From IMG/VR virus record IMGVR_UViG_3300045988_168123, positions 1-15,136 of that record: a DNA stretch of 15,136 nucleotides; one strand, given 5' to 3'. Each line of letters starts with the position of its first letter. The first letter of the stretch is position 1. Shown in pieces: positions 60-15,136 of the stretch. The position numbers and the translations under genes are program-made. The DNA comes from a virus. A model generated the notes under the pieces. The model searched no databases. It had not been told where the DNA came from and was given only the letters and a program-made list of their open reading frames with translations.

Positions 60-71
60 ACTATGTGTATC

Positions 72-249: not shown

Positions 250-300
250 ATACTTGTAGGGAACAAAGAGATACAGTACAGAAAGTTGAGGTAAGAAAAT

Positions 301-480
301 ATGTTTCATAGTAAAGAATTGAAAAGCTATAAAGGTTATAAAATATTTAAGTCATGGGAAAATGAATTGACATGGGATTATCGAACAGTGCAAGGCGATA
401 TTGAATATCTTGCTTTTGATAACGAATGGAATAAAATAGCAACAGCAAAAACATTACTAGAGTTAAAGAAATTATTATAA
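301..480 (+). CDS. Hypothetical small early protein, 59 aa (below the ORF-track size cut-off)
   Basis: ATG 301 lies 8 nt after the ITR-encoded SD GAGGT, with TAA at 478-480. Translation: MFHSKELKSYKGYKIFKSWENELTWDYRTVQGDIEYLAFDNEWNKIATAKTLLELKKLL. No family recognised. Confidence 0.6.
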   Translation: MFHSKELKSYKGYKIFKSWENELTWDYRTVQGDIEYLAFDNEWNKIATAKTLLELKKLL

Positions 481-499
481 TAAGAAAGATGAGGTAAAA

Positions 500-655
500 A
501 TGAAAACAATAACAGAATTAAGAAAAATGACAGTAGAGCAATTAAAACAATATTTAATGCAGATCGACAAAAGAAAGTATAACATGTTTGGTAGAACTAT
601 CAGTAAAAAAGGCATGCTTATACAAATAATAACTGGTTGCAAATATACAAGATAG
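500..655 (+). CDS. Hypothetical small early protein, 51 aa, with a possible SAP/HeH-like helix-extended-helix motif
   Basis: SD GAGGT lies 5 nt before ATG 500, with TAG at 653-655. Translation: MKTITELRKMTVEQLKQYLMQIDKRKYNMFGRTISKKGMLIQIITGCKYTR. The pattern ELRKMTVEQLKQYL...SKKGMLIQII resembles SAP/Rho-N type DNA-binding motifs. Confidence 0.55.
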   Translation: MKTITELRKMTVEQLKQYLMQIDKRKYNMFGRTISKKGMLIQIITGCKYTR

Positions 656-667
656 GGTGGTAATGTA

Positions 668-895
668 ATGCTTAGTTTAAAAGATCTGTTTTATTATAAC
701 ATTGATTACATGTACAGCGATACATTAACAATTCAATTTGAGGGGAGTAATACTAAATATGAACTCAAATGTGACGATTTAAATAGAATAAGTAATTATC
801 CAGTTCAACGTTTCCACGGTTATGAAGTATGTCTTTTATTTAGCATGCGTGATAGGGATAAACAGTATTTTAAGAAAGTTGGTGTGGAAGAATGA
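668..895 (+). CDS. Hypothetical small early protein, 75 aa
   Basis: ORF-track ORF, with SD-like GGGTGG upstream of ATG 668. No family recognised. Confidence 0.65.
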   Translation: MLSLKDLFYYNIDYMYSDTLTIQFEGSNTKYELKCDDLNRISNYPVQRFHGYEVCLLFSMRDRDKQYFKKVGVEE

Positions 896-1056
896 AACAT
901 GAAAATGATAAAAAATTTTTACTTTTTGCTATTTCAGAAATGCAACTTGCAATTCAAAGCGATCTTTTGAATGGTAATTATTTTTATCTTAAACAAGACA
1001 GGAAATTACTTGACAAATATTACAGAATATTACATGGCAAGAATACTATAAAATAG
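892..1056 (+). CDS. Hypothetical small early protein, 54 aa (below the ORF-track cut-off)
   Basis: ATG 892 overlaps the TGA of the previous gene (ATGA coupling). Translation: MKHENDKKFLLFAISEMQLAIQSDLLNGNYFYLKQDRKLLDKYYRILHGKNTIK. The stop TAG 1054-1056 lies inside the terminator stem. Confidence 0.55.
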   Translation: MKHENDKKFLLFAISEMQLAIQSDLLNGNYFYLKQDRKLLDKYYRILHGKNTIK

Positions 1057-1073
1057 GGTGCTAAGCACCCTAT
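1053..1073. terminator. Hairpin terminator at the convergence point of the two transcription directions
   Basis: ATAGGGTGC-TAA-GCACCCTAT is a perfect 9-bp stem. On the minus strand it is followed by TTTTATAG, a short U-tract. On the + strand the trailing T-run is poor. It overlaps the stop codons of both convergent genes. Confidence 0.6.
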
Positions 1074-1867
1074 TCACGCAAACGGTATAACGACATAGTA
1101 CCAATCACATTAATAGTAGTATTAGATGTTTGCATAGCATATAGAGAAAAAACATCATTTAATTTTGCATCAAAAGGTACTGTCGCAATATTCAAATTCG
1201 TTTTAACAGTTGGAACTGCACGATTGTTAGCAATACCAATGTCAATCGTTTCACCATTTCTTGTTCTTTTAAAAACAATTTGCCTAATACCGTTTTCGTT
1301 TTCTTCGAAGTATCCATTAACGTGAGCAAAATAATGCCCCTCTTTATTTTTATTGTCTATTGTAATAGTTACTATCAAGTTTTCCGATACTGTATTAGGT
1401 ATATTTACACCCTTATAGTCAGCTAAATTTGTACCGATCTTTTTTACACTATCTTCCAACGTTTCTACACGACCGTTTAATGCACTGATCTCCGCTTTAT
1501 CCGTGTTCAGATCGGTCTCAAGTTCTGCTATTGTTCTATCACTGCCACCCTTTAAAGTAGTTAAAGACTGCGAAACCAGTGCCACTTCTGTTTGCAAACC
1601 GGCGATTGATGTAGTACTACCACCCTTGATATTTTTAATATCATCTTTAACATTTGCAATATCTTGCGTGTTTTCGTTGATTTGCGTCCTGTTGTTGTTA
1701 ATCAGTTCCTCATCTGCCGTAAACCGCAATTCATATTTTGAATTTTCTGTTTTCTGCTCACCAACGGCGGTATCTACTTTAAGCATGTCGCTGTTATACT
1801 GATCTAACCAGTTTGGTACATCATTTGGTTCGAATTGCGTTAATTTGATATTTGGCGTTTCTCTCAT
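1070..1867 (-). CDS. Tail fibre / receptor-binding appendage protein, 265 aa
   Basis: It is the last gene of the structural string, with SD AGAGAGGA upstream. It has a conserved-looking fibre N-terminus (IKLTQFEPNDVPNWLDQYNSDMLKVD). A coiled-coil shaft carries a 25-aa internal duplication (KGGSTTSIAGLQTEV / KGGSDRTIAELETDL). The C-terminal ~120 aa are beta-rich. Confidence 0.6.
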   Translation of the reverse strand: MRETPNIKLTQFEPNDVPNWLDQYNSDMLKVDTAVGEQKTENSKYELRFTADEELINNNRTQINENTQDIANVKDDIKNIKGGSTTSIAGLQTEVALVSQSLTTLKGGSDRTIAELETDLNTDKAEISALNGRVETLEDSVKKIGTNLADYKGVNIPNTVSENLIVTITIDNKNKEGHYFAHVNGYFEENENGIRQIVFKRTRNGETIDIGIANNRAVPTVKTNLNIATVPFDAKLNDVFSLYAMQTSNTTINVIGTMSLYRLRE

Positions 1868-1883
1868 TTAATATCCTCTCTTT

Positions 1884-2861
1884 CTACTGGAAAATTTGTT
1901 TTCCAAGTACATAATAATTGTAAGCGGTTGCACCTTTATCAAAATATCCGGTTGCTGTTAATTGCAGAGCGGCATATTCAGCCGCAGTTAATGAATTAAC
2001 TTCCTCATGGAATTTGATAAGCTGTCTGATAACAGGCATAATTGTTTCAAATTTACCACTGTATGGATTTTGCATTGAAAAATCAAACTGAAATAATTTT
2101 CTGTCGTAGCGGCGTCTTAAATTTCTTAAGTACTCAATGCATGTCAATTTAAGATCGGCGTATTCCTGTGCCGTTAGTCCTAAAAATTCATACTCCCTAG
2201 CCGTTAATGCATTACTGCAAATATAATACATCATTTCAAGTGTACTGTTAATATCCATTACTGTTTTTGTAATTGGATTTTTCACATAATACATTTTACG
2301 GCTTTTGTAGAGTTCGTCGCAATATTTTTTCAATTCATTCCAGTAAAAAACATCCTGTTTGTCAATATAAGTATATATCGCATTGATACTTTTTGTCAAG
2401 TCATAAAATTCATTTCTAAGTGCTGTTAGTCTGCCGCTTAATTTTAAATCAAGTTCTGATAACGCATTAAAGAATTTTGTTTCAACATCACTGATTTTGT
2501 TATCCTGTTCGTTCATTCTAGCACGAATTTCATTTTCAAATTTAAGAAGTTTATCAGTAAATTTTTTATCCTGTAAAATCAGTGCTTTTTCTGTATCATC
2601 TTTAAGTTTTGTAATTTCCTTATTTACTTTTGTATTTAGTTCGTCAATTTCTCTGTCGATTTTAGTTTTAAATTCCAAAAGTTCTTTTTTGACATCCTGT
2701 AAAATCGAATCATGAATATTGTTTATAGTTTCTTCAATTTTTGTAATTTCCTCTCCCATTTCATTTAAAATTTTCGATATTGCAAGAAGTTGTTCATAAT
2801 AACTCATGCTATCATCATAACCGATTGGAATTGTACGATAAACGTATGGAAAATATATCAT
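1884..2861 (-). CDS. Structural protein of unknown role, 325 aa (coiled coil plus LTAxEY decapeptide repeats); candidate appendage or fibre-assembly protein
   Basis: SD AGAGGTG lies upstream. Residues ~20-160 are heptad-rich and charged. The C-terminal half has two clusters of exact 10-aa-period repeats (LTAREYEFLG LTAQEYADLK LTCIEYLRNL; LTAAEYAALQ LTATGYFDKG ATAYNYYVLG). It sits between the lower collar and fibre genes. Confidence 0.55.
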   Translation of the reverse strand: MIYFPYVYRTIPIGYDDSMSYYEQLLAISKILNEMGEEITKIEETINNIHDSILQDVKKELLEFKTKIDREIDELNTKVNKEITKLKDDTEKALILQDKKFTDKLLKFENEIRARMNEQDNKISDVETKFFNALSELDLKLSGRLTALRNEFYDLTKSINAIYTYIDKQDVFYWNELKKYCDELYKSRKMYYVKNPITKTVMDINSTLEMMYYICSNALTAREYEFLGLTAQEYADLKLTCIEYLRNLRRRYDRKLFQFDFSMQNPYSGKFETIMPVIRQLIKFHEEVNSLTAAEYAALQLTATGYFDKGATAYNYYVLGKQIFQ

Positions 2862-2873
2862 TTTATCACCTCT

Positions 2874-3824
2874 TTAATATCCGCGTAACGGGCTATACCA
2901 TGCGTTATTTTCTAAAGGTTCATAAAGCCCCAGGAACAAATCATCAAATTCATGTAATAACATTTCATTTATATTTCGGATAGCGGCTCTGTATTTTTCC
3001 AGTTCATCTGTCTTACTGCCGCCGCCCCATCCGCTATCAGAGTAAATGTCTGTATATTCATGTTCATGCTTCATCTGATTTTCACTGTCGATAACATGAC
3101 CATGGGTGAAAGTATTTTGTGACTTGTTGCCTAAAGTTGTAGTGGAAATTGTAGAATCCGCTGATTTCACACTTCCAGTTCCGTCACTTTTCACTGTATC
3201 ATTAACAGTATTTGTACTTTCATCATTCGACTGCCCACGATTTACCTCGCTTGCATAATCTTTTGTTTTCGTAAAACTTGCTTGCGGATAATCGCTTCGT
3301 AATGTCTGATTATTATTCGAACTATTAACAGTCGTTGTGCTTTTGTCTGTTGTAGTGTTTGAATTTTCACTATCGCTTTGCTTTTTTGACTCCGTAATTA
3401 TTTTATCACTGCCACTGTTTTCTGTCAATGACAAATCTTTTCCACTGTTTGTATTTTTTCCAGTTGCATTTTCATTATCTTTCTTTTCACCGTTTCTTTT
3501 TCCACTGATTTCATGATTGATAAGAGGATTATAAGTAATGTTCAGTGCTTTATAAAGATCAGTATAGTATGGAATTTTTTGATAAAATACTCTCTGCATC
3601 TGCATTTTAAATAATGCCATTGTTTCGAACCCGATTTCATCAGTAAAATGGCTTTCTACAAAAATTCGCTTAAAGTTCTCCAAACTACCATCAGAATTAT
3701 CGTTATACCATGGAAAAGGAAAAGAAAAAATATTTTCCGCTGTTTTCATAACACGTTCTTGCCATTTATCACCGGTCGTAAAACTGTCGTAAATGTCTTT
3801 GAAACAAAGTGTATAGTAAGCCAT
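2874..3824 (-). CDS. Lower collar (gp11-like) protein, 316 aa
   Basis: It lies immediately downstream of the portal gene, as in phi29 (gene 10 then 11). Its start overlaps the portal stop (TAATG) after SD GAGGTGG. The motif DEIGFETMALFKMQMQRVFYQKIPYYTDLY resembles lower-collar proteins. It has a long Ser/Thr/Asn-rich central insertion. Confidence 0.6.
   Translation of the reverse strand: MAYYTLCFKDIYDSFTTGDKWQERVMKTAENIFSFPFPWYNDNSDGSLENFKRIFVESHFTDEIGFETMALFKMQMQRVFYQKIPYYTDLYKALNITYNPLINHEISGKRNGEKKDNENATGKNTNSGKDLSLTENSGSDKIITESKKQSDSENSNTTTDKSTTTVNSSNNNQTLRSDYPQASFTKTKDYASEVNRGQSNDESTNTVNDTVKSDGTGSVKSADSTISTTTLGNKSQNTFTHGHVIDSENQMKHEHEYTDIYSDSGWGGGSKTDELEKYRAAIRNINEMLLHEFDDLFLGLYEPLENNAWYSPLRGY
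3400..3428 (-). promoter_or_regulatory. Candidate internal promoter inside the lower-collar gene
   Basis: Minus strand reads TTGACA (3428-3423), 17-bp spacer, extended -10 TGaTAAAAT (3408-3400). The 10-mer ATTGACAGAA is identical to the -35 context of the 11610-11638 promoter. Confidence 0.35.
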
Positions 3825-4720
3825 TATTCCACCTCGCTATCTCTTTCAGCCGAAACATTATTCAATAATGGAATATCAGAATTAAATTCCACGGTGATAT
3901 TTAAGCCGAAAAGTTTATTAATCTGCTCTGCACTCCGCTGTCTAACTCCCAGTGCATTTTTTCGGTTCATTTCTAATTCTCCCGTATTTCCATCAACTTC
4001 TCCACTAACAGATCGTTCCTTTTTATCGGAATAAAAGCTGTTAATACCTAAAAATGTACAGGCGTCCGACATTTCCCAACGCATTGCGGCGTCTAACTCT
4101 GGAAATAATACCGGTGCTTCAGTTCTTACTGATTTTAAATCACCATTGTCACGAACACCTTTTTTCAAATGAATAAACGGAATACCGTCGATAATTTGTT
4201 TCATGATATTCATGGCAGATAATTTTTGTTCACATGTGCTAGTTACCAAAACAGGTGTGCGGTTTGCAATCAAGTTTACATCACGGGAAATTCTCATGTT
4301 TGCCAATGCGTCTGCATGCATGGCAATAATATCGGCGCTAGGGTAATCGGTCATGTTGTCATGTAGTAAAACACTATTTTCTTTTGTTAATTCAGCGTTA
4401 TAATTAATGGAATACGCAAACCGCATATCACCATAACCATAAATATCCAAGTTACCGGCTGTTGTAACGTTCATCACTGCAAACATGTTTGCAATATCAT
4501 CTTTAAAGAAAATACCATTCCCACGAAAAAATAACATTTCTTCCAAGAATCGTGGGTCAATTTCCGGCGGCAGATTTTTCCATTTGAATCGAGTTACTGC
4601 CAGTCCTAATAGATAATAAAAATATCTATTAAAATATAGATTGTATTTTGTATTTTTTCCACAAAATTTTCCTCTTAAGACATCAATATTTGAACTGTTT
4701 CTTCCCATCATTAACCTCAT
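3824..4720 (-). CDS. Portal / connector (upper collar, phi29 gp10-like), 298 aa
   Basis: It matches remembered phi29 gp10 blocks. [19 protein letters not shown] matches [27 protein letters not shown] matches [28 protein letters not shown] matches [33 protein letters not shown] matches INELYGLNVKVKF. The start could instead be Met4/Met5, just after GAGGT. Confidence 0.9.
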   Translation of the reverse strand: [298 protein letters not shown]

Positions 4721-6363
4721 TCATTACTTAATGCATAATTTCCTATATCGTTAGTATGCCATACTGTTACACCATTGTCAAATATTTTTCGCATTTTTTC
4801 CAACATGTCAATAGGGAATTTTCCATCAATACTGCAATTTTGTGTTTTCACATAATTCCATGATGAGCGACCTGTGATATCCGGCTTCTTTACTCTGCAA
4901 ATTTTATAACCAAACATGGAAAAATAATCGTCAATTACCTTTGCAAATTCTGCCGTGATTGATACGGGATAAACAGAAATACAGTCAAAGTTAGCCGCTT
5001 TTGGTAAAGTGTTACTGATTGAACCTTTTATACCATCTGCCTGTAATTGTGCCTGGTAATTCCCGCTTAATAAACTATAAACGGAATTACCAAAATTTGA
5101 CGCAACTTGATTTCCAGTAACTTTCTGTTCTCCCCCGATCGCTCCGATAATATCACCGATTCCGGCGATTGATTGCCCGACCGTCATGATACTTCTTCCA
5201 ATCCAATCTCCTGTATTGGTTGGTACATTATCTCCCGTTGCTAAAGACATGATTAAATTGTTACTGTTTTGAGCCAGCCAAGCTTTGTATGCGTCAACAG
5301 GAAATGCAATTTTTGGATAACCGTTAAACGTAATTGAATCTCCAAAATTTTCCTGTACACCTTTATAATATTGTGGATAACAATAAAGTGTAGGGTTCGG
5401 TGAAACATTTACAGTATAATAAAAATTGCAAAGATCATCAGCACCCGGCGTGTGGAATCGTTCAAATTCAAACTGTTTAATTTGACCGCTGTTGTTTGTC
5501 ATTTGTAAAAATGAATATGGGTAAGCAAATAATTTATTATTTTTCGGCGTGTACCCGTTAATATCTTTTATACTTTTCTTTGAAAAGGAAAAAGTCTTTT
5601 TTACAATGTTATTCACATCGGCAAATGTCGCCGGCATTTCCCAAGCGTCGACAATATCATCTGCACTTCCTTTAGCGGTTATAACATTTTCAATATAAGT
5701 CTGCAAATCTGCCAAACTGGTATACACTCCAATGTATAAGCCACATGGCACGTTTTGATATAAAGACATTTCTGCTGTTTCAGCATTATTATCAACTGCG
5801 CTTGCCACGCAATATACAACCTCTCTCCGTTCATCCCCCTCAGCCGGTATCGTCGATAAAGAGTTGTTGCCGTTTACAACATAATCTCCTAACTGTAATC
5901 CCTCTGGATAAGTGTAACGACCACGGATATCGGAACTTTTCTTTACGATTTCACGTTCAACGAAGCATTCTTTTAACTCAATATCGAACTGACATTCATT
6001 CCAAACATCCAGTTCAAATTTTACATGTGTTACTGTTGCGCTTACAGGCGTAACTGATCTGATAAATGCATAATGCGGCGTGTTATCCCATGGTGTATTT
6101 ACAAAACGCATATAATTACACTTATAAGCAAGTGCTTGATTGTAATCTATCGCAATATCAATTTCTCCCATGCTAATAAATGACACTTCTGTTGTAGTAA
6201 ACTTTACAAGAGTTTCAAGAAAAGTGTCTAATTGCGTTCTGTTTGAATATTTCCTTACATGCGTGTAATTATAATCCCACGGAACTCCGCTATACAATTT
6301 TAATTCAGCTTGAGGGGTGGAACTCTCCACCCCTACTGAATCTGGAAAAGGTATATACTCCAT
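4717..6363 (-). CDS. Tail knob / tail tube protein (phi29 gp9-like), 548 aa
   Basis: The N-terminal region aligns with remembered phi29 gp9: YAFIRSVTPVSATVTHVKFELDVWNECQFDIELKECFVEREI versus [42 protein letters not shown]. It lies between the capsid and portal genes, as in phi29. Confidence 0.85.
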   Translation of the reverse strand: MEYIPFPDSVGVESSTPQAELKLYSGVPWDYNYTHVRKYSNRTQLDTFLETLVKFTTTEVSFISMGEIDIAIDYNQALAYKCNYMRFVNTPWDNTPHYAFIRSVTPVSATVTHVKFELDVWNECQFDIELKECFVEREIVKKSSDIRGRYTYPEGLQLGDYVVNGNNSLSTIPAEGDERREVVYCVASAVDNNAETAEMSLYQNVPCGLYIGVYTSLADLQTYIENVITAKGSADDIVDAWEMPATFADVNNIVKKTFSFSKKSIKDINGYTPKNNKLFAYPYSFLQMTNNSGQIKQFEFERFHTPGADDLCNFYYTVNVSPNPTLYCYPQYYKGVQENFGDSITFNGYPKIAFPVDAYKAWLAQNSNNLIMSLATGDNVPTNTGDWIGRSIMTVGQSIAGIGDIIGAIGGEQKVTGNQVASNFGNSVYSLLSGNYQAQLQADGIKGSISNTLPKAANFDCISVYPVSITAEFAKVIDDYFSMFGYKICRVKKPDITGRSSWNYVKTQNCSIDGKFPIDMLEKMRKIFDNGVTVWHTNDIGNYALSNE

Positions 6364-6373
6364 TTCATTCTCC

Positions 6374-7648
6374 CTAAGATATAGTAACTGTTCCTGTTCC
6401 GCTCACTGTGCTATCAGTTCTGCTTGTAACTGTTACAGTTAAAGTTGTAGCTTTTTCATCGTTTCCAATACTAAGGATATTAGAACCCGGAATGAATTTT
6501 GTAAAAGCTGACTTATTTCCGCTAACTGAATAATCAAATACCTGTGAAACATATCCTGTATCGCCTGTATTTGTTGCTTTTGCTTTGATCTCAACTGTTG
6601 TCGCTTTTGACGCCGTTGCATTTTCAACAGTAATTGTTTCTGCCGCATTCTGTTCCGTTGTGAAAATAATCATCGGAAAGAAAGGACTATAAGAGTACAT
6701 CTGCGACAGTGTATAGAAATAATTCCATGTAAGTGCCGCACCGTTTCTGCTGTCGGACATTGTTCTGAAATTCTCACGCACTTTAAACCAACGCATATCG
6801 AAAAGAACTGCTTTAATTTCCGTGTTTGCAAATTTATCCACAATGATCTTGTGCGCCGTGATATCAACTTTGTTATCGTGAAACGCTGTTGCCAAAACGT
6901 CCACGTCGAGTACTGCGTCCATTTCCGGCGTTACCATGTAATAAATTCCGTTTTCCAATGCAGAGGATGTCGCACCGGCAATGTTATATTCCGGGTGTGG
7001 AAACTTCATCTGATTGATGTAAGATTTCATTGCGATCGTTAATTCACGTGCCGCCGCTGAATCGTTATTTCCACTTACCTGTACATTGTAAAGCTGTCCT
7101 TTTTCATATGCAGATTCAATCAGCATTTTCATTGTCAAGTATTCGTCATATTCCGCACTTGCATAAACCGCTTGCACTTTTGCATTAATAAGATCACGAA
7201 TACCATAGTCACTGGTAAAAGCCATTCTAAGATTATCATAAGTAATCGTTAGTGGATATTGAATCGCTGGATTCACCTTGTGATAAGCCGACATCACATT
7301 GCTGTCGTAAAAAGCAAATAACTCATTCGTTCCGGCAAAAGCGTCGAATGTTTTTCCTTTGATCATATTAACAAAAATTTCCTGTTCCGTAAGTCCATAC
7401 CTCATTGGGTCTGTCTTTAAAGCGGTCAATGGATTTTTGAAATAAGACGCATTGATTTGCGTTAACGCAATTCTGCCTATCAGACTTGCGATAAATTCAT
7501 TCCGAACCGGCTCAACGTTTAAAATTTCATCATAAATACCCTCAATCGAATTTTTAATCGGGTCGGGAATCCGTGTGTTTGGATTCATATCCCGTAACGC
7601 ACGAATAATATTTTCATTAGTTGCCGGTGTTTTTACTGTGGTTGACAT
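6374..7648 (-). CDS. Major capsid protein, 424 aa, with a C-terminal Ig-like (BIG2-type) domain
   Basis: It has a very strong SD (GAGGGGGG) and follows the scaffold gene, as phi29 gene 8 follows gene 7. Its size is similar to gp8. The last ~88 aa (ETITVENATASKATTVEIKAKAT...TLTVTVTSRTDSTVSGTGTVTIS) look like an Ig-like beta-sandwich. Confidence 0.75.
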   Translation of the reverse strand: MSTTVKTPATNENIIRALRDMNPNTRIPDPIKNSIEGIYDEILNVEPVRNEFIASLIGRIALTQINASYFKNPLTALKTDPMRYGLTEQEIFVNMIKGKTFDAFAGTNELFAFYDSNVMSAYHKVNPAIQYPLTITYDNLRMAFTSDYGIRDLINAKVQAVYASAEYDEYLTMKMLIESAYEKGQLYNVQVSGNNDSAAARELTIAMKSYINQMKFPHPEYNIAGATSSALENGIYYMVTPEMDAVLDVDVLATAFHDNKVDITAHKIIVDKFANTEIKAVLFDMRWFKVRENFRTMSDSRNGAALTWNYFYTLSQMYSYSPFFPMIIFTTEQNAAETITVENATASKATTVEIKAKATNTGDTGYVSQVFDYSVSGNKSAFTKFIPGSNILSIGNDEKATTLTVTVTSRTDSTVSGTGTVTIS

Positions 7649-7662
7649 TTCTTTACCCCCCT

Positions 7663-7944
7663 CTACTCTGTTTCTGCTGAAAAATCAAGAGAACCAACAT
7701 CTACTGTTTTCGGTTCTTCTTCTTTTTCGTCCTCTGTTACATCTGCTCGCACCTCTGTATTCAGAGATTCTTTAAACCGTTTTTTGTAAACCTCTGATAA
7801 TTCACGGTATTTTGTTTCCCAGTCATCAGCGTTTACAGAACTTGTATTTTCATTTTTTAATGTTTCTACAACCTCATCAAATTCCGCAATCCGTTCTTCT
7901 GGGATAATGTCAATTACTTTACTGATTGCTTCATCAAAAGTCAT
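7663..7944 (-). CDS. Scaffolding protein, 93 aa (gp7-like by position and composition)
   Basis: It is a small, highly acidic protein predicted to be helical. It is the first gene after the late promoter and lies immediately upstream of the capsid gene. Confidence 0.6.
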   Translation of the reverse strand: MTFDEAISKVIDIIPEERIAEFDEVVETLKNENTSSVNADDWETKYRELSEVYKKRFKESLNTEVRADVTEDEKEEEPKTVDVGSLDFSAETE

Positions 7945-7970
7945 TTTTCTATACCTCTCTTTCTAAATAT

Positions 7971-7999
7971 ATTGTAATATAAAGTTGGTTGCGTGTCAA
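7971..7999 (-). promoter_or_regulatory. Late (structural-gene) sigma-A-type promoter
   Basis: Minus strand reads TTGACA (7999-7994), 17-bp spacer, TACAAT (7976-7971). SD AGAGAGG and the scaffold ATG at 7944 follow. The -35 overlaps the stop codon of the upstream gene. Confidence 0.65.
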
Positions 8000-8658
8000 G
8001 AAAAAGTTTTAAAATAAGCATTCCTTAAATAAAAAAGCTGTTTAAACTCTTTCTTAATTGGTTTAATTGGTGTTGGCGGTTCTGTTCCGGCAAAAATACT
8101 GTAATAATATTCTCCATAAGCCGCTCTTAAATTTTCCTGTGACGCTGATTGATCAGCCGGCTGTTCATAATTATGCAGAACAAAATCACTTGCATGCTTA
8201 ATAGAAGTTGCTGTTTGACATGTAGTTAAAGTGCTTCTATAACCACCTTGCAATTCAGATAATGCAAAACCTACTGCTACATTCACGTCTCCGACCTGTG
8301 ATATTCCACTTGCTTTCCAAAAATCCCAGTAAGCAGATTTTCTAGTCGGGTATGTCCATTGCGCCAAGCTATAACCTAATTTATTGGTAACAAATTCATT
8401 TTTTGTAATTGTTCCGTTATCTATTGAGTTAGAATAATCAACAGAAATTTGAGTCGGCGGCGTATCTCCTTGTTTGCAAAATGGACAATTATAACTTTCT
8501 ACTTGCCAGTTTCCCATGATTCCGGCAACGCCGTATTCATTTCCAACGATTGCCTTTAATAAACTCCATATGCTTGCGGCGTAATTAAACACCCGGACAC
8601 TTACTGTGCCATAGTTTGAGTTATAAGCGACAACCGTAGAAGATAAATCATAAGCCAT
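7996..8658 (-). CDS. Phage-tail-lysozyme-like (Phage_lysozyme2-type) muralytic protein, 220 aa
   Basis: Three motifs are typical of that family: GIMGNWQVES, GYSLAQWTYPTRKSAYWDFW and FVLHNYEQPAD...RAAYGEYYYSIF. There is no clear SD, and the ATG lies 2 nt after the endolysin stop. Confidence 0.6.
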   Translation of the reverse strand: MAYDLSSTVVAYNSNYGTVSVRVFNYAASIWSLLKAIVGNEYGVAGIMGNWQVESYNCPFCKQGDTPPTQISVDYSNSIDNGTITKNEFVTNKLGYSLAQWTYPTRKSAYWDFWKASGISQVGDVNVAVGFALSELQGGYRSTLTTCQTATSIKHASDFVLHNYEQPADQSASQENLRAAYGEYYYSIFAGTEPPTPIKPIKKEFKQLFYLRNAYFKTFS

Positions 8659-8660
8659 AA

Positions 8661-9326
8661 TTATTCAACAGAGGAAAAACCGGCTGACCATGTGTTTTTT
8701 CCCACTTTTCCGTCTACTGTCAATCCGTGATTTTTCTGAAAAGATTTTGTAACTTTTTCAGTATTTGCACCAAAAACACCATCAGGCGTAATGCCTATAA
8801 TACACTGCCATATTTTAACGGCTTTTCCTTTACTTCCTTTTTGAATTAATTTCATATTATAATCTCCATTTTCTAAACCACACGAAACTTTTACTGCTGT
8901 TTTAAAAAGTACACATTCCTGTTTTCTCCGTGACTCAAGACCACTAAGTTTTTTCTTTTTTCCATTTACAGTAGCATAACAGTATTTTAACATTGCAACT
9001 GCAATTTGCTGTTTTGTCCGTGTTCCATTTGCGGTGACTCCTTTCACATTTCCGACATTGAATGCAAAGGAAACCAGAGCGGAAAATTCATTTTCATTGA
9101 AATTGTAATTTCCTTTTGCATTGATATTGGAAACCATTTTTTCGAATCTCTCAACGTCTTTCTTAAGAAGTTTATCAGCATCTTCTTTACAGATAAAATC
9201 ACCATCTTTTACGCCACCGGTGTGCCCAAAACCGATCGTCCAAACTCCCGCCGGACATCTATAAGCTCTTGCACGAAAACCCTCAAAACGCTTAATGATG
9301 ATTAAGCCTTTTTCATTTATTTTCAT
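8661..9326 (-). CDS. Endolysin: GH24 phage lysozyme plus C-terminal PG_binding_1 domain, 221 aa
   Basis: The N-terminus KINEKGLIIIKRFEGFRARAYRCPAGVWTIGFGHT is the GH24/T4-type lysozyme signature, with the catalytic Glu in FEG. The C-terminus KGKAVKIWQCIIGITPDGVFGANTEKVTKSFQKNHGLTVDGKVGKNTW is a peptidoglycan-binding repeat. I prefer ATG 9326 (SD AGAGGTGG 5 nt upstream) to the GTG at 9335 used by the ORF track. Confidence 0.9.
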   Translation of the reverse strand: MKINEKGLIIIKRFEGFRARAYRCPAGVWTIGFGHTGGVKDGDFICKEDADKLLKKDVERFEKMVSNINAKGNYNFNENEFSALVSFAFNVGNVKGVTANGTRTKQQIAVAMLKYCYATVNGKKKKLSGLESRRKQECVLFKTAVKVSCGLENGDYNMKLIQKGSKGKAVKIWQCIIGITPDGVFGANTEKVTKSFQKNHGLTVDGKVGKNTWSAGFSSVE

Positions 9327-9717
9327 CTTTTCCACCTCTGATTTGTATACATTTTTCTTTTAACCAATCCGGTAAGGGGATATATTCCCCAGTATTTTCA
9401 ACAATACTCAATCCCTCATTTGCACAAAAGAATGACAAGATAACTTTTGTCAAATCAGTTCTTAAATAAAAATCAAAAGCCATGCAAAGAGAAACGATCA
9501 CAACCATGTAAAATTTTTTCACAATTCCGGCAAAGCAAACCTCTGAATTTAAAGTACCATTCTGAAATGCTTTCACAATTCCTGTGATGAAATCTAAACA
9601 CATCAGAATATAAAGCACTGGCAGATAATTAATTCCGGTAAATAAAAAACCGACAACAGCCAAAACTATTGTTATTAACAACACTGCTACTGAAAACATT
9701 TTTTTGCTTATTTTCAT
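9313..9717 (-). CDS. Holin (Phage_holin_4_1 / LL-H type), 134 aa
   Basis: There are several hydrophobic TM segments (FSVAVLLITIVLAVVGFLF, LPVLYILMCLDFITGIV, FYMVVIVSLCMAFDFYL). The family signature FFCANEGLSIVENTGEYIPLPDWL is present. The start is placed at ATG 9717 after SD AGAGAGGAAAAA. The ORF stays open in frame up to ATG 9843 (see findings). Confidence 0.85.
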   Translation of the reverse strand: MKISKKMFSVAVLLITIVLAVVGFLFTGINYLPVLYILMCLDFITGIVKAFQNGTLNSEVCFAGIVKKFYMVVIVSLCMAFDFYLRTDLTKVILSFFCANEGLSIVENTGEYIPLPDWLKEKCIQIRGGKDENK

Positions 9718-9737
9718 TTTTTCCTCTCTTTCTATGG

Positions 9738-9815
9738 GGCGGTTTCTTTTAACTTCTCCACCACGGAGATACGCACTGTTTTTCCAGTTGGTTCTGCTAT
9801 CAGTTAAAATCCACC
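9738..9815 (-). promoter_or_regulatory. Structured non-coding leader / candidate small RNA between the ATPase and holin genes
   Basis: On the minus strand, GGUGG-A-UUUUAACU (9815-9802) can pair with AGUUAAAA-GAAA-CCGCC (9754-9738). These enclose two hairpins: ACUG/CAGU (9788-9775) and UCUCC-GUGGU-GGAGA (9769-9755). Folded by eye only. Confidence 0.25.
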
Positions 9816-9833
9816 GTTTTTCCCCGTGATTAA

Positions 9834-9862
9834 ACAATATCATATTTATCCGTACATGTCAA
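9834..9862 (-). promoter_or_regulatory. Candidate promoter in the last codons of the ATPase gene (lysis cassette / leader)
   Basis: Minus strand reads TTGACA (9862-9857), 17-bp spacer, extended -10 TGaTATTGT (9842-9834). It shares AGGTATTGACA with the promoter at the polymerase gene end. Confidence 0.45.
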
Positions 9863-10907
9863 TACCTAACAATAAAAAAATTATATTTTTTATTTCAATA
9901 TTTTCAAAAGTTAAATAAGCATTATCGAATGCATTTTCCAATGTTTTGAAAATGAAAGATGAACGCTTTAACATAACAGTATTTTGACTATGATTTTCCG
10001 GCGTAAAAGCAAAAGTATAAAATGCACTGGGATCAATTTTATCATTGCAGTGTATTTCTCCACTTTCATAAAATTCACGCACACCGATTTTTTTATCGCC
10101 GTATTCTATTGTACATAAATATCGAGATTTTCCAGTCTGCTTTTTAATGAAAGCGGACATATTAATCAAATAAGAATTTTTTGCTGTCATGTACTCTGTA
10201 AATGCTGAATTTGATTCGGAAAAGGCACGGACAATATTATTTCCCGATACCGCTTTATCTGCTGATGAATTATAACCCTGTTCCAAAACCCAACCATGAC
10301 CACGGAGAAAATGCACGTTATCCGTTAAACGTTGCGTGATTCCCAGTGAAATGTAATAAGGATTCAGAATTGATATATTGTTCGATAACATGTAAAGATC
10401 AATGTTTCGTGACTGCGAACCACCACCACGGGCGATTGATATAATCAATGACATTAATTTTTGCGGTTCATTTTTCATATAACGTCCGTTTTCTAACTGG
10501 TATTCATCGAATAATGCACGATTTACATTATAAAAAAGCGGACTGTATTTTTTCATTTTATCGACTGCAAATAAACCGACAGCATAACCGCATAAATGAC
10601 TTTCTTCATCCTTTAATATAATCTGATAAAACAGACCTTTCGCACATGCTTTTGTTTCCATTGAATAATTCGGATATTCTCTTTGCAAAATATCAGCAAA
10701 AATGTTGTGTGCGTCCGACATTTCATATTGGTTTCGATAAATGATTGCAAATTGTGTTCCGTCCTGTAAAAAATACTCGATAAATTCTTTCAATACTGCT
10801 GTTGTTTTTCCGGCAGATCGGTTACTTGAAATAAGGAAAATGGACGGTTTTTTCCCGTCCAAGTCCTTTATCTTTTTTATTTTATCGAGCGTATAATAAC
10901 CGCTCAT
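9846..10907 (-). CDS. DNA encapsidation (packaging) ATPase, phi29 gp16-like, 353 aa
   Basis: Walker A is SSNRSAGKTT and Walker B is ALFDEY. Two blocks align with remembered gp16. FLISSNRSAGKTTAVLKEFIEYFLQDGTQFAIIYRN matches FVIGARGIGKSYAMKVYPINRFIKYGEQFIYVRRY. YMLSNNISILNPYYISLGI matches ICLSNAVSVVNPYFLFFNL. The start overlaps the upstream stop (TAATG). Confidence 0.9.
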   Translation of the reverse strand: MSGYYTLDKIKKIKDLDGKKPSIFLISSNRSAGKTTAVLKEFIEYFLQDGTQFAIIYRNQYEMSDAHNIFADILQREYPNYSMETKACAKGLFYQIILKDEESHLCGYAVGLFAVDKMKKYSPLFYNVNRALFDEYQLENGRYMKNEPQKLMSLIISIARGGGSQSRNIDLYMLSNNISILNPYYISLGITQRLTDNVHFLRGHGWVLEQGYNSSADKAVSGNNIVRAFSESNSAFTEYMTAKNSYLINMSAFIKKQTGKSRYLCTIEYGDKKIGVREFYESGEIHCNDKIDPSAFYTFAFTPENHSQNTVMLKRSSFIFKTLENAFDNAYLTFENIEIKNIIFLLLGIDMYG

Positions 10908-11239
10908 TACAGTATCTCCAGAGTTAAGAATTTTCTTCCGTTTTTACTCTCCGATGAGCGAATAGTAAAAGGAATACCGGCTTTAATTTCTTCCGGTGTG
11001 TATTCTGCCTCAATCATTTCAACAGTAGAACGGACGTTTGCAGATGTAGAACCGATAAAACCATCCTGTGTTTTAATTGATGTAACGATCTGTACTGTAC
11101 CATCTTCTTTTGTATCTTCATAAATTACAAAACCGGTCATTATTAATGATACCCCGGTATAATCTTTCATTACGCCCATTGCATTGCCGGCGTTGATAGC
11201 ATCTTTTTTGCTGTCTAAATTTGTACTTAAAACTTTCAT
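10907..11239 (-). CDS. Putative ssDNA-binding protein (phi29 p5-like), 110 aa
   Basis: SD AAGGAG lies upstream. The C-terminal half resembles remembered phi29 p5. [31 protein letters not shown] matches [51 protein letters not shown] matches FKVKVVQGTSSKGNVFFSLQLSL. The similarity is from memory, not computed. Confidence 0.5.
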   Translation of the reverse strand: [110 protein letters not shown]

Positions 11240-11263
11240 GTCTCTTCTCCTTTTCTTTTACAG

Positions 11264-11560
11264 TTATTTAGCGTCTACCAGTTTACCATCTACTACCGGT
11301 TTTGCAATTTTCAGAAATTCTTCCACCGTAATACCAAGCAGACGTTCGCTTGTAGATGTTACTTCCGCAATGACTTTTTTCACGTCGTGTTCTTTAGCGA
11401 TCTTTTTAAGATCGCTTTCTTTTAATTTCTCCGGCACTGTTACAGTATCTAACATAGTGATTGCACCATCTTCCAAACTGTACAGATTATAAGTATAACT
11501 GTCTGTCACGGTTCGTGTTAATAAAGGTACTCTTTTTCCTGTCTTTTCTTTGTTACTCAT
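11264..11560 (-). CDS. Putative dsDNA-binding replication accessory protein (phi29 p6-like), 98 aa
   Basis: I prefer ATG 11560 (SD AGAGAGGAAAG upstream) to the TTG at 11605 used in the ORF track. It is the first gene after a near-consensus promoter. The C-terminal LGITVEEFLKIAKPVV resembles remembered p6 YELPVEKFLEVATVRV. It is small and charged. Confidence 0.4.
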   Translation of the reverse strand: MSNKEKTGKRVPLLTRTVTDSYTYNLYSLEDGAITMLDTVTVPEKLKESDLKKIAKEHDVKKVIAEVTSTSERLLGITVEEFLKIAKPVVDGKLVDAK

Positions 11561-11609
11561 TCTTTCTTTCCTCTCTTTCTTGAGTTTGTCTGTTCCTTTG
11601 AACAATTAT

Positions 11610-11638
11610 ATATTAACAGATTTATTGTATTCTGTCAA
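11610..11638 (-). promoter_or_regulatory. Near-consensus sigma-A-type promoter embedded in the last codons of the polymerase gene
   Basis: Minus strand reads TTGACA (11638-11633, inside codons G-I-D of ...GIDRIQ*), a 17-bp spacer ending in TGt, then -10 TAATAT (11615-11610). Confidence 0.65.
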
Positions 11639-13676
11639 TACCTTTTTCATAAATTTCAGAAAAATTTTTTTCCAGTAATTCCCTAAATGTATTTGATACA
11701 CCTAGTGTATAAGTAGTATCAAAAAGTGCAAGAGAAGAAGCTGTTAAAAAAGATGAATTATTAAAATCTATATAATGAGGTTCTTCCTCTACATAATAGG
11801 CAACCTGTCTGCCAACATCATTAAGCGGTTCACCTGTTATTTTGAAATTCTCTATACTTTCTATTCTCTCTGCACCTTTTTTCTTTGACATTCCTGCAAC
11901 TGTAATATGAAAACCTTTTTCATCATTATAGGCATATTTTTTTGCTCCCCATGTTCGAAACTCTGAATATTTCCCATCATCTTCCCACACGCCTAAATAA
12001 TACTTTTTATTATCTTTTTCAGAATAGGCTTTTGGAAAAGCATTTTCGTCATCCTCTATAATTCTTTTGTTCAATTCTTCAAAAACATCGTCATGATCTC
12101 CAACATATTTTACTGAATCCGTATCGCAATATACAAAATCATTTCCAACTTCTGTAACTGCTAAACGTAATTCGTAACGTGCTCCGGCTGTTATCCACAC
12201 GCCCCATTGATAAGGTAAGAAATTATTCATAGATTTGTAAAATTTATCCAATGATTCTTTCAAGTCCTCTTTTTCTACTTTCCATTTTATATCACTTTCA
12301 GCATTGTAATAAATTTCATCATGGTCAATGGCAGTAACCATCATGCCAAAAGAACTATTGACATCATTTTTCTTTTTAGCATATTCATACTCCTTTCCGC
12401 TAACATCTTTTAATTGTGTCTTACCATCATAAAGTTCCATCAAATACTCCCGTAATTCAACAGGTAATAAACCTCTTTTCGCTATGTACATTTTTTCTAC
12501 TTTAATACTTAAAAATTCATAACTCATTCTAATACACTTAATATCTAATTCTGTACATGTTAAATTTATCATTTTTGCTGAAACGATTCTACCATTATCA
12601 TTAATAATATCTGAATGTCTCAAGCAATGTGCTAAATCAATATACGGACACGGCTGATCTATTTTATTCTCAAGTTCAAATATCGTGACATTCATCAAAC
12701 ATGCATAATTATCAATGTAATTATCAAATTCCTCTTGTGACCTAGGAACAACAAAAGTAAACGGAGACATTGGGAAAATAGGTTGATTCATTACAGCCGG
12801 ATAAGATGACTGACGATCTTTACTTTTTACATTTACAATAATGTAACCAACTTTATACCTATTTGCATGTGTGTCGCCACCACGAAAAGCCTGTTTACAC
12901 ATTGTATAAGTTTCCGGTGTTAACCTTAATTTTATAAACAAATCACGATTCCGTTTATTTTTCATCCTTTTTCTATAATCACGTCGGACATAACCGGTGC
13001 TTGTGAGAGGTATAGTTGTTAGTTCATCATCTAATAAGCGAGTTTCGACACATTCATAAAGACCAGCAACGTCACAATAACAGTAACCTAGTTCTTCTTC
13101 TGTCATTTCCGTGTCACATGTTCTTATCTTCTTATAATTATAATTTTCTCCGGACATTTTAAAATGAAAACATAATTTTGAATTTTCACAAAATTTCTGC
13201 AAATTCATATTACTTAAAAAATAAGAACAACGAAACTCTATTCCATGTGATAAATAATAAAGAACTTTGTGCCTACCTTTTGCAAATAATTCATCCGGTT
13301 TTAGAAAATCCTTTATGAATTGAAATTCAAAAGATAAATTGTGAACATAACAAACCAATCTCTTACTTTCATTTAATTCTAAACGTTCTACTAAAAAATC
13401 AATGAACGCTAAAAACTCTTCCCAACGTCTACCGAAAATAACGCTATGATTAATGCATGCTTGCCAGTGGTACATAAACGCTTTTGGCTGTTCGTTTATC
13501 ATAACAGATGTCGTTTCAATATCAAACGTCATGAAAAAAGATGTAATATAAGTTATTTCAGTTTTTCCTTTTTTCCGGCGTTTTGTATCATAAACAACAG
13601 GTATATTTAATTCATCCAATGAATATATTTTTTCTCTATTAATACCGTTTTTATTAGGAACATTTATATATTTCAT
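11622..13676 (-). CDS. Family-B, protein-primed DNA polymerase, 684 aa
   Basis: All pPolB motifs are present. Exo I is FDIETT (D52, E54). Exo II is HNLSFEFQF (N113..E117). Exo III is YCYCD (Y198..D202). Motif A is DRQSSYPAVM (D287). Motif B is KKKNDVNSSFG. Motif C is VYCDTDSVKY (nt 12114-12131). KxY is GAKKYAY. The start overlaps the upstream gene (ATGA). Confidence 0.97.
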   Translation of the reverse strand: MKYINVPNKNGINREKIYSLDELNIPVVYDTKRRKKGKTEITYITSFFMTFDIETTSVMINEQPKAFMYHWQACINHSVIFGRRWEEFLAFIDFLVERLELNESKRLVCYVHNLSFEFQFIKDFLKPDELFAKGRHKVLYYLSHGIEFRCSYFLSNMNLQKFCENSKLCFHFKMSGENYNYKKIRTCDTEMTEEELGYCYCDVAGLYECVETRLLDDELTTIPLTSTGYVRRDYRKRMKNKRNRDLFIKLRLTPETYTMCKQAFRGGDTHANRYKVGYIIVNVKSKDRQSSYPAVMNQPIFPMSPFTFVVPRSQEEFDNYIDNYACLMNVTIFELENKIDQPCPYIDLAHCLRHSDIINDNGRIVSAKMINLTCTELDIKCIRMSYEFLSIKVEKMYIAKRGLLPVELREYLMELYDGKTQLKDVSGKEYEYAKKKNDVNSSFGMMVTAIDHDEIYYNAESDIKWKVEKEDLKESLDKFYKSMNNFLPYQWGVWITAGARYELRLAVTEVGNDFVYCDTDSVKYVGDHDDVFEELNKRIIEDDENAFPKAYSEKDNKKYYLGVWEDDGKYSEFRTWGAKKYAYNDEKGFHITVAGMSKKKGAERIESIENFKITGEPLNDVGRQVAYYVEEEPHYIDFNNSSFLTASSLALFDTTYTLGVSNTFRELLEKNFSEIYEKGIDRIQ

Positions 13677-14317
13677 CTAAATAATCTCCTATATTCTTTT
13701 TTCTGCTCTTTATCCATTTTTTCGCCGTGATCATGCATGTACTGTAATTCCTGTACTTCTGCAATTTTATCATAAAATTCATTCCATCCAAATTTAAAAT
13801 TTTGAAAATCAATAAATAATTTTTTCAATGTGTCCAAAGGTAATTCGTCATGAACGTCTAAGAAAAATTCCTGTAAATCCTCAGACGCTATTAATTGTGA
13901 CATGGTTTTGTACTCCTCAGATGTTAAAAAATCAAAAAAATCATTCTGATTTTCATAATTTAATTCAAGACCACGCATGAAAATTCCTTCGTCCGTTACC
14001 CTATCTTTTTTCAATTCAGAAACAGCCCGTGCGTGTGCTTTTTTCGCACCTGTTATCGTGGATGTTGGTCTATTCAAAAAGTCCTCTAGCTGATTTAGAG
14101 TTGCTGTTAAATTTTTATCTGATATCCGTTTTGAAAAATGCGGTTTTTCCTTGCCCTGTAATTTTCCTAGACGCTTATAAGCGTATTGAGTCAAGCCGGC
14201 TTTTTCCAAACGTGATAGGCGTTTATTAGCAAGTGCTGATAATTCTTTTACAGCCTGTTTTAACTGATCGCCTTGCAATTTTCGTATTGCTTCGAAATCG
14301 TATTTGCGTTCTTTCAT
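13673..14317 (-). CDS. Putative terminal (priming) protein, 214 aa
   Basis: It lies immediately upstream of the protein-primed polymerase and is translationally coupled to it (ATGA at both ends), as phi29 gene 3 is to gene 2. It is charged and helical. No sequence motif was recognised, so the call rests on position only. Confidence 0.5.
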   Translation of the reverse strand: MKERKYDFEAIRKLQGDQLKQAVKELSALANKRLSRLEKAGLTQYAYKRLGKLQGKEKPHFSKRISDKNLTATLNQLEDFLNRPTSTITGAKKAHARAVSELKKDRVTDEGIFMRGLELNYENQNDFFDFLTSEEYKTMSQLIASEDLQEFFLDVHDELPLDTLKKLFIDFQNFKFGWNEFYDKIAEVQELQYMHDHGEKMDKEQKKEYRRLFR

Positions 14318-14592
14318 AATGCACCACCCATTGCTTGTATAATTATTTTGTCCTCTATTTTTCTATAAAGATCTTCCAATGAAACAAAATCGTTTTTTAC
14401 TGTTAAGTAAAATGAATTAAAATAAATATAAAGTGTATTGCCGATAAAATCAATTTCTATTAATTTTATTGACTTAAAACGCAAGTATAATGCTGTAACG
14501 TTTCCGAGTATTTCTACAACTTCTATATCAGTCATGTGAGATTCTACCAAGCTTAATTTTTCTTTTTCTGATAAACCACCTAACTTTTCCAT
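14314..14592 (-). CDS. Hypothetical early protein, 92 aa
   Basis: SD AAGGAG lies 6 nt before ATG 14592. The stop overlaps the next start (ATGA). No family recognised. Confidence 0.7.
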   Translation of the reverse strand: MEKLGGLSEKEKLSLVESHMTDIEVVEILGNVTALYLRFKSIKLIEIDFIGNTLYIYFNSFYLTVKNDFVSLEDLYRKIEDKIIIQAMGGAL

Positions 14593-14603
14593 TTGTATCT
14601 CCT

Positions 14604-14837
14604 TTATTTTCTCATGTAATTATATTCGTCTCCGGCATTTCCTACAATGTATACAGGTTCTCTTAATGCTCCGAACATATCGCATTTTGAATATCTTGCA
14701 ACTATAATATTTCCTGTAATTTCTTTAATTGCATTTCTAAATTCTTTTACAGAATCATAATGCTTAATATAGACTCTCGATTCCGAAGAACCGTTACTAT
14801 TTTTCATTTCATATATAATTTTACCTATTACTCTCAT
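14604..14837 (-). CDS. Hypothetical early protein, 77 aa (true start at the inner edge of ITR-R)
   Basis: ATG 14837 lies 7 nt after the ITR-encoded SD GAGGT. The protein begins MRVIGKIIYEMKNSNGSSES. The 79 codons upstream in the ORF-track ORF are ITR and promoter sequence, not coding. Confidence 0.65.
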   Translation of the reverse strand: MRVIGKIIYEMKNSNGSSESRVYIKHYDSVKEFRNAIKEITGNIIVARYSKCDMFGALREPVYIVGNAGDEYNYMRK

Positions 14838-15136
14838 TTTTCTGACCTCAACTTTCTGTACTGTATCTCTTTGTTCCTTACAAGTATATAATACCACGAC
14901 AAAGTATGTTTTGCAAGTGTTTTCTATATAAAATATTACACAAAATATTAATTCTCTATAACACGCATTTTGTACAAAGTGCTGTCTCTTTTGCACGCAC
15001 ATTTTGCCGGTTTTGTCCGTCGTCTGCGAACACTTGACTCGCTTTGTGTGTTCTCCCGACGGACAGATACACATAGTAGTGTCCGTCCCACACGGACACT
15101 TGGGGGTTTTTTGTGTATGGTGGGCACTATATTATA
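14838..15136. repeat. Right inverted terminal repeat (ITR-R)
   Basis: Reverse complement of 1-299 (see ITR-L). The window ends exactly at the repeat end. Confidence 0.97.
14888..14916 (-). promoter_or_regulatory. Sigma-A-type promoter in ITR-R driving the early replication operon
   Basis: This is the mirror of 221-249: -35 TTGCAA (14916-14911), 17-bp spacer, TGgTATTAT (14896-14888). The spacer differs from the left copy at 5 positions. Confidence 0.6.

Follow-up and report, generated by a model that had tools for sequence, protein, structure and literature searches.

In a 15,136-bp phage sequence (IMG/VR record IMGVR_UViG_3300045988_168123, positions 1 to 15,136; hereafter the window), the 128-nt gap at 9718-9845 that separates the gene of a phi29 gp16-type DNA-packaging ATPase from a holin gene on the minus strand encodes a conserved structured RNA. 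We consider it probable, at roughly 75%, that this RNA is the counterpart of the prohead RNA (pRNA) of phage phi29 in a large clade of phi29-like podoviruses of Clostridia and gut bacteria. A prohead-RNA role in DNA packaging appears most likely, judging from the point-by-point pRNA architecture, the covarying pairing of a bulge with a hairpin loop, the occurrence in phi29-type phages and the linkage to a gp16-type ATPase gene.

A conserved three-way junction RNA

The gap extends from the ATPase stop codon (9848-9846) to the holin ATG (9717-9715), which is supported by a Shine-Dalgarno sequence (SD), and the remaining same-strand junctions measure at most 24 nt, with one exception of 51 nt at 7945-7995. 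An initial annotation, made from the letters of the window, had named it the largest internal non-coding gap, which the table of open reading frames (ORFs) bears out, and had proposed that it can fold as a three-way junction. Such a junction is indeed the minimum free energy (MFE) structure of 9718-9845 (-), at -28.5 kcal/mol (z = -2.39; 4 of 200 shuffled sequences were as stable). The z-score of this one sequence is modest; what decides the matter is the covariation among relatives. The parts of the element are as follows:

9736-9825 (-): whole pRNA-like element of about 90 nt, from the outer A-helix GGGG to CCCC (MFE, folds of relatives, covariance model)
9822-9825 (-): outer 5' strand of the A helix, GGGG, pairing with CCCC at 9736-9739; G-C kept in 4-5 of 5 relatives
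9817-9821 (-): 5-nt A bulge between outer and middle A helix; locus L016 has an extra A here
9813-9816 (-): middle 5' strand of the A helix, CGGU, pairing with ACCG at 9740-9743 (MFE)
9802-9809 (-): inner 5' strand of the A helix, UUUUAACU, pairing with 9747-9754; both-side changes in 5 of 8 pairs (7 relatives)
9747-9754 (-): inner 3' strand of the A helix, AGUUAAAA (MFE, alignment)
9796-9797 (-): 5' strand of the C helix, GC, pairing with GC at 9773-9774
9789-9795 (-): 5'-side bulge AGAACCA, equivalent of the phi29 CE loop; its ACCA (9789-9792) is complementary to the D loop
9775-9788 (-): E hairpin ACUG-GAAAAA-CAGU, 4 bp with a 6-nt A-rich loop; compensatory changes
9755-9769 (-): D hairpin UCUCC-GUGGU-GGAGA; its loop UGGU (9760-9763) pairs with ACCA; 4 of 4 counted stem pairs change on both sides

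The helices that the initial annotation had drawn by eye were exact for the inner UUUUAACU/AGUUAAAA pairing and the two small hairpins, whereas its outer GGUGG/CCGCC gives way in the MFE to CGGU/ACCG plus GGGG/CCCC; the two versions are register alternatives within one helix. Its observation that the loop GUGGU (9764-9760) is complementary to an unpaired ACCA holds as well, the ACCA being located at 9792-9789. The C helix has 3 bp in relatives (GAC/GUC or GGC/GCC) and 5-7 bp in other clades; an extended 5-bp version with a bulged G in the window was rejected, as it is not conserved in L019.

Relatives were gathered as a graded series by a protein search with the ATPase, and their contigs were retrieved (loci labelled L001 onward). 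Of about 118 related loci, most (roughly 80) have the element beside a gp16-type ATPase gene, among them those of two cultured phages, Clostridium phages HM2 (L117, 6113-6184) and CS229P1 (L116, 10569-10648). In all relatives with the gene order of the window, 93-234 nt separate the ATPase gene from the next one, in genomes that are tightly packed otherwise, and both gap and element are retained at ATPase identities from 87% down to 46%. Folded separately, 9 of 12 distinct relative sequences have the three-way junction as their MFE structure. The hairpins meanwhile change their sequence and keep their pairing, with ACUG/CAGU, AGUG/CACU and AGCG/CGCU as variants of the E hairpin, and CUCC/GGAG, GUCC/GGAC and CCGA/UCGG as variants of the D hairpin.

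Covariation was scored in three alignments. In that of the window's own group (MAFFT, 7 sequences, ATPase identity from 100% down to 46%), 92.4% of the cells are paired, compared with 74.8% in shuffled alignments and 34-47% in slid controls; the covariation score is 0.497 versus 0.190 in shuffles, and 12 of 23 pairs show changes on both sides. A sister group that includes CS229P1 (14 sequences, MAFFT) has 82% of its cells paired versus 60% after shuffling. From this sister alignment a covariance model, R2, was built, which does not contain the loop-loop pairs; it matches 61 of 100 loci, all on the ATPase strand, with starts about 10-75 nt past the ATPase stop codon. The 52 distinct sequences found in this way give 83.0% paired cells (58.3% shuffled) and a covariation score of 0.583 (0.168 shuffled). 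All helices covary, and in none of the three alignments does any of 500 shuffles reach the observed score or paired fraction. The initial annotation had named covariation in related genomes as a check on its fold, and the check came out in its favour: the structure is conserved, with compensatory changes in all helices. A second model, R1, built from the window's group, scores 80.9 bits on the core 9747-9809; it aligned a more distant clade badly, and that alignment was left out of the pair counts. R1 and R2 match neither each other's groups nor phi29, so that it is architecture and position, not sequence, that connect the groups.

The 5' bulge and the D loop stay complementary among the relatives while their sequences change, with at least 15 different pairs on record. 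The loops hardly vary in the window's closest group (ACCA/UGGU; in L018 ACCG/UGGU, which includes a G-U pair). Relatives at a greater distance that share the gene order carry AUCC/GGAU (L031), UGCA/UGCA (L029 and L030), AUGC/GCAU (L034), GCCA/UGGC (L040), GACU/AGUC (L032), GACA/UGUC (L047) and GUAGU/ACUAC (HM2), and ACACA/UGUGU and ACGC/GCGU are found among other relatives. The loop-loop helix is 94.6% paired in the 14-sequence sister alignment, with both-side changes in 4 of 4 pairs, and 83.8% paired in the 52-sequence set, with both-side changes in 4 of 5.

Independently of alignments, a structural descriptor was used. It sets minimum lengths of 5 bp for the A helix, 2 bp for the C helix and 4 bp for the bulge/loop complementarity, allows 5-9 nt in the 5' bulge, and asks for a D hairpin and for an E hairpin whose loop is A-rich. 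Its best match in the whole window, both strands included, is 9747-9809 (-). The unrestricted descriptor is too permissive, giving hundreds of chance matches, and it was therefore confined to ATPase-flanking regions, scored by free energy and set against shuffled controls. At a threshold of -12 kcal/mol or lower it finds the junction in 44 ATPase-flanking regions of the 118 loci (35 distinct elements) and in 0 of 462 shuffled regions. To avoid circularity, the complementarity requirement was also dropped: 25 of the 45 distinct junctions then found (56%) still keep at least 4 bp, whereas cross-pairing the bulges and loops of different elements gives 16%.

Against this background the view that the gap is a plain promoter-bearing spacer, folded by chance, can draw on the modest z-score and the 4 equally stable shuffles. 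It leaves the compensatory changes in every helix, the failure of all 500 shuffles in each alignment and the empty shuffled set at the descriptor threshold without explanation; as read from the aligned sequences, the covariation refutes it, and we regard it as very improbable.

The position of the element is not the same everywhere. In a third clade (L045, L046, L048, L051, L053, L063 and L109) it lies 400-515 nt upstream of the ATPase gene, at about 1910-2095 in locus coordinates, with loops CACCA/UGGUG or AACCG/UGGUU, which indicates that the RNA gene has moved relative to the ATPase gene.

Promoter, 3' end and the holin gene

The following features flank the element in the window:

9846-10907 (-): gene of the DNA-packaging ATPase, phi29 gp16 type (Pfam PF05894 Podovirus_Gp16, E = 2.4e-24; ORF table)
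9857-9862 (-): -35 hexamer TTGACA, within the last ATPase codons (promoter scan)
9834-9842 (-): extended -10, TG-a-TATTGT, with a 17-nt spacer from the -35 (promoter scan)
9723-9728 (-): SD of the holin gene, GAGAGG, unpaired in the fold (sequence)
9313-9717 (-): holin gene, short form of 134 aa with the real start (Pfam PF05105, E = 2.5e-25, match from residue 21)

The promoter scan recovered what the initial annotation had proposed, namely a candidate promoter at 9862-9834 with transcription starting near 9827 and a leader of about 110 nt; the predicted start is 1-2 nt ahead of the A helix and the leader 110 nt long. The arrangement TTGAC(A/T), 17-nt spacer, TGnTAnnnT is conserved in position in the window, L018, L019, L021, L027, L028, L033, L040 and HM2, and L049 has a comparable promoter-like site whose first hexamer is TTGATT. 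It should be noted that the -35 box overlaps conserved G-I-D codons of the ATPase gene, so that its conservation may be partly coding-driven. The TGnTAnnnT of the relatives lies in non-coding DNA, at the same distance from the helix as in the window. A stronger promoter-like match is present at 9880-9907 (-) (TTGAAA, 16-nt spacer, TATAAT; 11 of 12 positions), 45 nt upstream of the first one and in the AT-rich terminal part of the ATPase gene; an active promoter there would extend the RNA by about 45 nt at its 5' end.

At the 3' side the clades differ. In the sister clade, 10 of the 16 distinct elements have a hairpin with a U-tail no more than about 25 nt downstream, and the genes past this terminator are convergent; there the element looks like a stand-alone small-RNA gene. 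The IMG/VR relatives L001-L014 likewise have convergent genes after the ATPase gene, yet element and terminator are present. In the window's clade the terminator scan found no terminator after the element, and the holin SD follows 8 nt after the A helix. Elsewhere in the window, the scan scored a hairpin at 10841-10861 as terminator-like on both strands: this perfect, G+C-rich 7-bp hairpin (TGGACGG-GAAAAAA-CCGTCCA), with TTTTCC after it, sits about 46 nt into the ATPase ORF.

Taken alone, the arrangement in the window's clade would suit a cis-acting 5' leader of the holin/lysis (late) transcript, stabilising the mRNA or tuning holin translation and lysis timing without any role in packaging: nothing terminates transcription between element and holin gene, the SD is close, and the promoter would also drive the holin, endolysin and tail lysozyme genes. 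The fold, however, leaves SD and start codon free, and the downstream gene varies among relatives, being a 73-aa ORF in L029, a GH25 endolysin in L032 and a 67-aa ORF in L034. Beyond the window's clade, the element ends at a terminator facing convergent genes or lies several hundred nucleotides upstream of the ATPase gene, and a plain mRNA stabiliser fails to explain why the bulge and loop covary through so many sequence pairs. Neither the window nor a 181-nt slice holding the element matched any known leader family in Rfam, and there is no constant class of downstream gene. We consider such a leader unlikely. The suggestion of the initial annotation that the element bears on lysis timing is unsupported, given that the next gene often is not a holin and that the sister clade has a terminator.

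The gap could also be coding. An ORF in frame with the holin does start at ATG 9843, as the initial annotation had noted; it gives a protein of 176 aa, in which the holin would carry a 42-residue basic N-terminal extension and might act as a long-form antiholin. The frame is open from this start into the holin only in the window, L015 and L017, and in the latter two (4068-4598) the automatic gene caller chose the 176-aa form, turning the RNA gene into the N-terminus of a holin, and in L016 it picked the short holin. L015, L016 and L017 share one ATPase protein (P0001), 99% identical to that of the window; in L016, a single extra A in the unpaired A-run of the A helix leaves no in-frame start. 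In L019, L021, L027, L028 and L035, in-frame stops occur 5-28 codons upstream of the SD-supported start. No SD precedes 9843, the Pfam holin domain starts only at residue 21 of the short form, and the substitutions in the gap track base pairing, not codon positions. With the frame lost in L016, stops in the other relatives, no SD and the late start of the Pfam match, the extension is best seen as an accidental open frame in an RNA gene; the antiholin of the initial annotation, whose start is lost in L016 and whose frame is closed in five relatives, is refuted as a conserved feature, and a coding gap seems to us next to impossible. An in-frame start codon upstream of a holin gene recalls dual-start holin/antiholin pairs such as lambda S105/S107. 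The starts of known pairs are a few codons apart and conserved, whereas the extension in the window, 42 codons long and without an SD, is interrupted in close relatives. For phi29, a holin MKM motif has been discussed in the same context of dual starts (PMC9965433).

The genome and its relatives

Inverted terminal repeats (ITRs) of 299 bp, 98% complementary, occupy both ends of the window (1-299 and 14838-15136), which is therefore probably a complete linear genome; it looks like that of a phi29-like podovirus. Almost all genes are on the minus strand. They start with an ORF of 214 aa, a type-B DNA polymerase (PF03175), two small proteins and the gp16-type ATPase, and continue after the element with holin, endolysin, tail lysozyme, a scaffold-sized protein, a phi29-type major capsid protein (PF25622 Phi29_MCP, E = 1.2e-76) and tail and portal genes. 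The 214-aa ORF, just upstream of the polymerase gene and without a Pfam match, would by its position be the terminal protein. With the PF05894 ATPase, the PF25622 capsid protein, PF03175 and ITRs, the window represents the type of phage in which phi29 pRNA occurs. A scan of the window for tRNA and tmRNA genes found none, and a blastn comparison of the window region with the INPHARED phages returned zero matches.

By ATPase protein, the closest cultured relatives are Clostridium phages HM2 (40% identity) and CS229P1-3 (39%), while identity to the Bacillus phi29-like phages is 27-29%. From the relationship to HM2 and CS229P1, the hosts are probably Clostridia.

In 30 of 121 related loci we observed a perfect 14-bp palindrome, GTTTCACGTGAAAC, for example in L116 (10529-10542), L035 (4 copies), L029 and L030, L045-L053 and the Clostridium phage phiCPV4 (L120, 6 copies). 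In L029, L032, L035 and L116 it is intergenic, close to the ATPase gene or the RNA element, and it looks like an operator for a shared regulator, as far as its sequence and placement suggest. It is absent from the window, whose best match has 3 mismatches and is at chance level.

Comparison with phi29 pRNA and other known systems

The phi29 family of packaging RNAs, represented here by Bacillus phages phi29, PZA, M2/Nf, B103, SF5 and GA-1 and by Rfam family RF00044 (Phage_pRNA), provides the closest parallel. As a reference, the left end of phi29 (EU771092) was retrieved and its pRNA folded. The MFE structure of the reference consists of an A helix closed by the two ends, a C helix whose only bulge is a 9-nt one on the 5' side ending in AACC, a 4-bp E hairpin with a 6-nt loop, a contiguous C 3' strand, UUU, a D hairpin with the 5-nt loop UGGUU, and a contiguous A 3' strand. 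The window element has the same parts in identical order: its A helix is likewise formed by the 5' and 3' ends with a contiguous 3' strand, its 5' bulge has 7 nt and ends in ACCA, its E hairpin also has 4 bp and a 6-nt loop, 3 nt link C and D, and its D loop GUGGU, like UGGUU, has 5 nt of which 4 pair. The complementary loops are AACC/GGUU in phi29 and ACCA/UGGU in the window, and as in the phi29 family the loop pair varies between phages while complementarity is kept. Shared with that family are also the protein-primed podovirus with its gp16-type ATPase and, by prediction, a sigma-A-type promoter of its own with its start at the foot of the A helix. When the filter for an A-rich loop is removed, the descriptor returns the phi29 pRNA core as its best match in the 1.2-kb left end, which served as positive control. 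What the initial annotation had called reminiscent of phi29 pRNA is thus strongly supported by topology, by covarying helices and loop pairing, and by the position next to the ATPase gene.

Several observations nevertheless weigh against the identification with pRNA. The Rfam model RF00044, which gives phi29 145.4 bits (gathering score 100), finds nothing up to E = 10 in the window or the 181-nt slice, nor in HM2 or CS229P1 at permissive thresholds, and sequence homology with phi29 pRNA is not detectable. At about 90 nt the element is shorter than the phi29 pRNA (117-174 nt), its C helix has 2-3 bp instead of about 9 bp, and the second domain of the phi29 family is missing. Whereas the phi29 pRNA is encoded at the left genome end, the element is internal (9736-9825 of 15,136), on the strand of the ATPase gene and directly after it. 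No terminator follows in the window's clade, a further difference from the phi29 family, so that a discrete RNA is a prediction for this clade. Finally, covariation, being a signal in aligned sequences, proves that bulge and loop pair, but does not tell whether they do so within one molecule or between two.

The pRNAs of GA-1 and Karezi are also non-terminal (PMC9965433), so that a position at the genome end is typical rather than strictly defining, and in phi29 a core of about 75 nt is enough for self-association and motor binding (PMC4201828). With no Rfam match, a smaller size and another place in the genome, the element would be a variant form of pRNA and not a member of RF00044. A junction at the ITRs, where a phi29-style terminal pRNA would lie (29-101 (-) and 15036-15108 (+)), was rejected as a better candidate: it is weak (-11.4 kcal/mol, TGTG/CACA), the MFE structure there consists of two separate long hairpins (-49.8 kcal/mol, z = -2.84 for the outward-reading strand) and no outward promoter was found.

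Two of the opposing points, the silent Rfam model and the covariation that suits pairing within a molecule equally well, would also be accommodated by a trans-acting or structural RNA with an intramolecular pseudoknot between bulge and D loop that serves another purpose than packaging, for instance as regulatory small RNA, protein decoy or anti-defence RNA. Against it stand the point-by-point match with phi29 pRNA in topology and loop sizes, the occurrence in phi29-type phages and the near-universal position beside a gp16-type ATPase gene, and we hold it to be rather unlikely.

As a pRNA, the element would act as follows. Transcription would start near 9827 from the sigma-A-type promoter whose -35 box lies in the last ATPase codons, and the first 90 nt or so would fold into the three-way junction of A helix, C/E arm with the 7-nt 5' bulge ending in ACCA, and D hairpin with the loop GUGGU. 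The bulge of one molecule would pair with the D loop of the next, giving an RNA ring on the portal vertex of the prohead, and the A helices would recruit the gp16-type ATPase to package the protein-capped linear genome. As no terminator is present in this genome, an extra step has to be assumed: processing would cut the RNA off the 5' end of the holin/lysis transcript, or the RNA would persist as the stable 5' fragment of that transcript.

The papers open to search place pRNA mainly in Bacillus phages. According to a 2024 review it is unique to phi29 and related Bacillus phages (PMC11476376), predictions so far were confined to Bacillus podoviruses (PMC9965433), and in work on C. perfringens phages pRNA is mentioned only as the partner of the phi29 ATPase (PMC3362512). 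In the part of the literature open to search, to which subscription-only papers did not belong, we found no report of a pRNA in Clostridium or gut phi29-like phages. If our reading is correct, a diverged class of pRNA beside the ATPase gene in a large clade of Clostridia type would widen the known distribution. It would also separate conserved features (order of the junction, one-sided bulge, 5-nt D loop) from variable ones (length of the C helix, second domain, genome position). pRNA has been described as the sole natural RNA whose identical molecules are known to assemble into functional multimers (PMC4201828). The at least 15 natural orthogonal loop pairs and the new three-way junctions would become available to RNA nanotechnology. 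The annotation of such phage genomes would improve as well, the gene caller having made the RNA a false 42-residue extension of a holin, and with two cultured relatives carrying the element the proposal is directly testable.

Outside Bacillus, a putative pRNA of Streptococcus phage Cp-1 was proposed by Martin et al. 1996, as cited in PMC6266182, and is missed by covariance models based on Bacillus pRNAs (PMC6266182); like the window element, it belongs to a phi29-like phage of another host group and escapes Bacillus-based models. In Cp-1 (L119) the descriptor points to a candidate junction at 4704-4787 (-), with -20.3 kcal/mol versus -9.2 for the best shuffled sequence and a 6-bp loop complementarity UGGUUA/UAACCA, a locus that may or may not be the one proposed in 1996. 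It lies in the intergenic region of the annotated late promoters PL1 and PL2, on the opposite strand, and unlike the window element it does not adjoin the ATPase gene. In phiCPV4, a pRNA-like junction is found at 16200-16272 (-) (-22.7 kcal/mol versus -6.3 for the best shuffled; loops GCCA/UGGC), in a 213-nt gap upstream of gp22 and the major head protein gene, away from the ATPase gene.

The origin of pRNA is debated, as a relic of an RNA world or a late acquisition. Taken together, the comparisons would fit a pRNA that is an ancestral, near-universal part of the gp16-type motor rather than a Bacillus-specific one. It would survive as highly diverged mini-pRNAs of about 70-90 nt in phi29-like phages whose hosts are Clostridia of gut and rumen (over 80 loci, including HM2 and CS229P1), and probably also in phiCPV4 and Cp-1. 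In the window's clade the pRNA would form the 5' end of the lysis/late mRNA, its supply thereby coupled to late expression. To this wider picture we give even odds.

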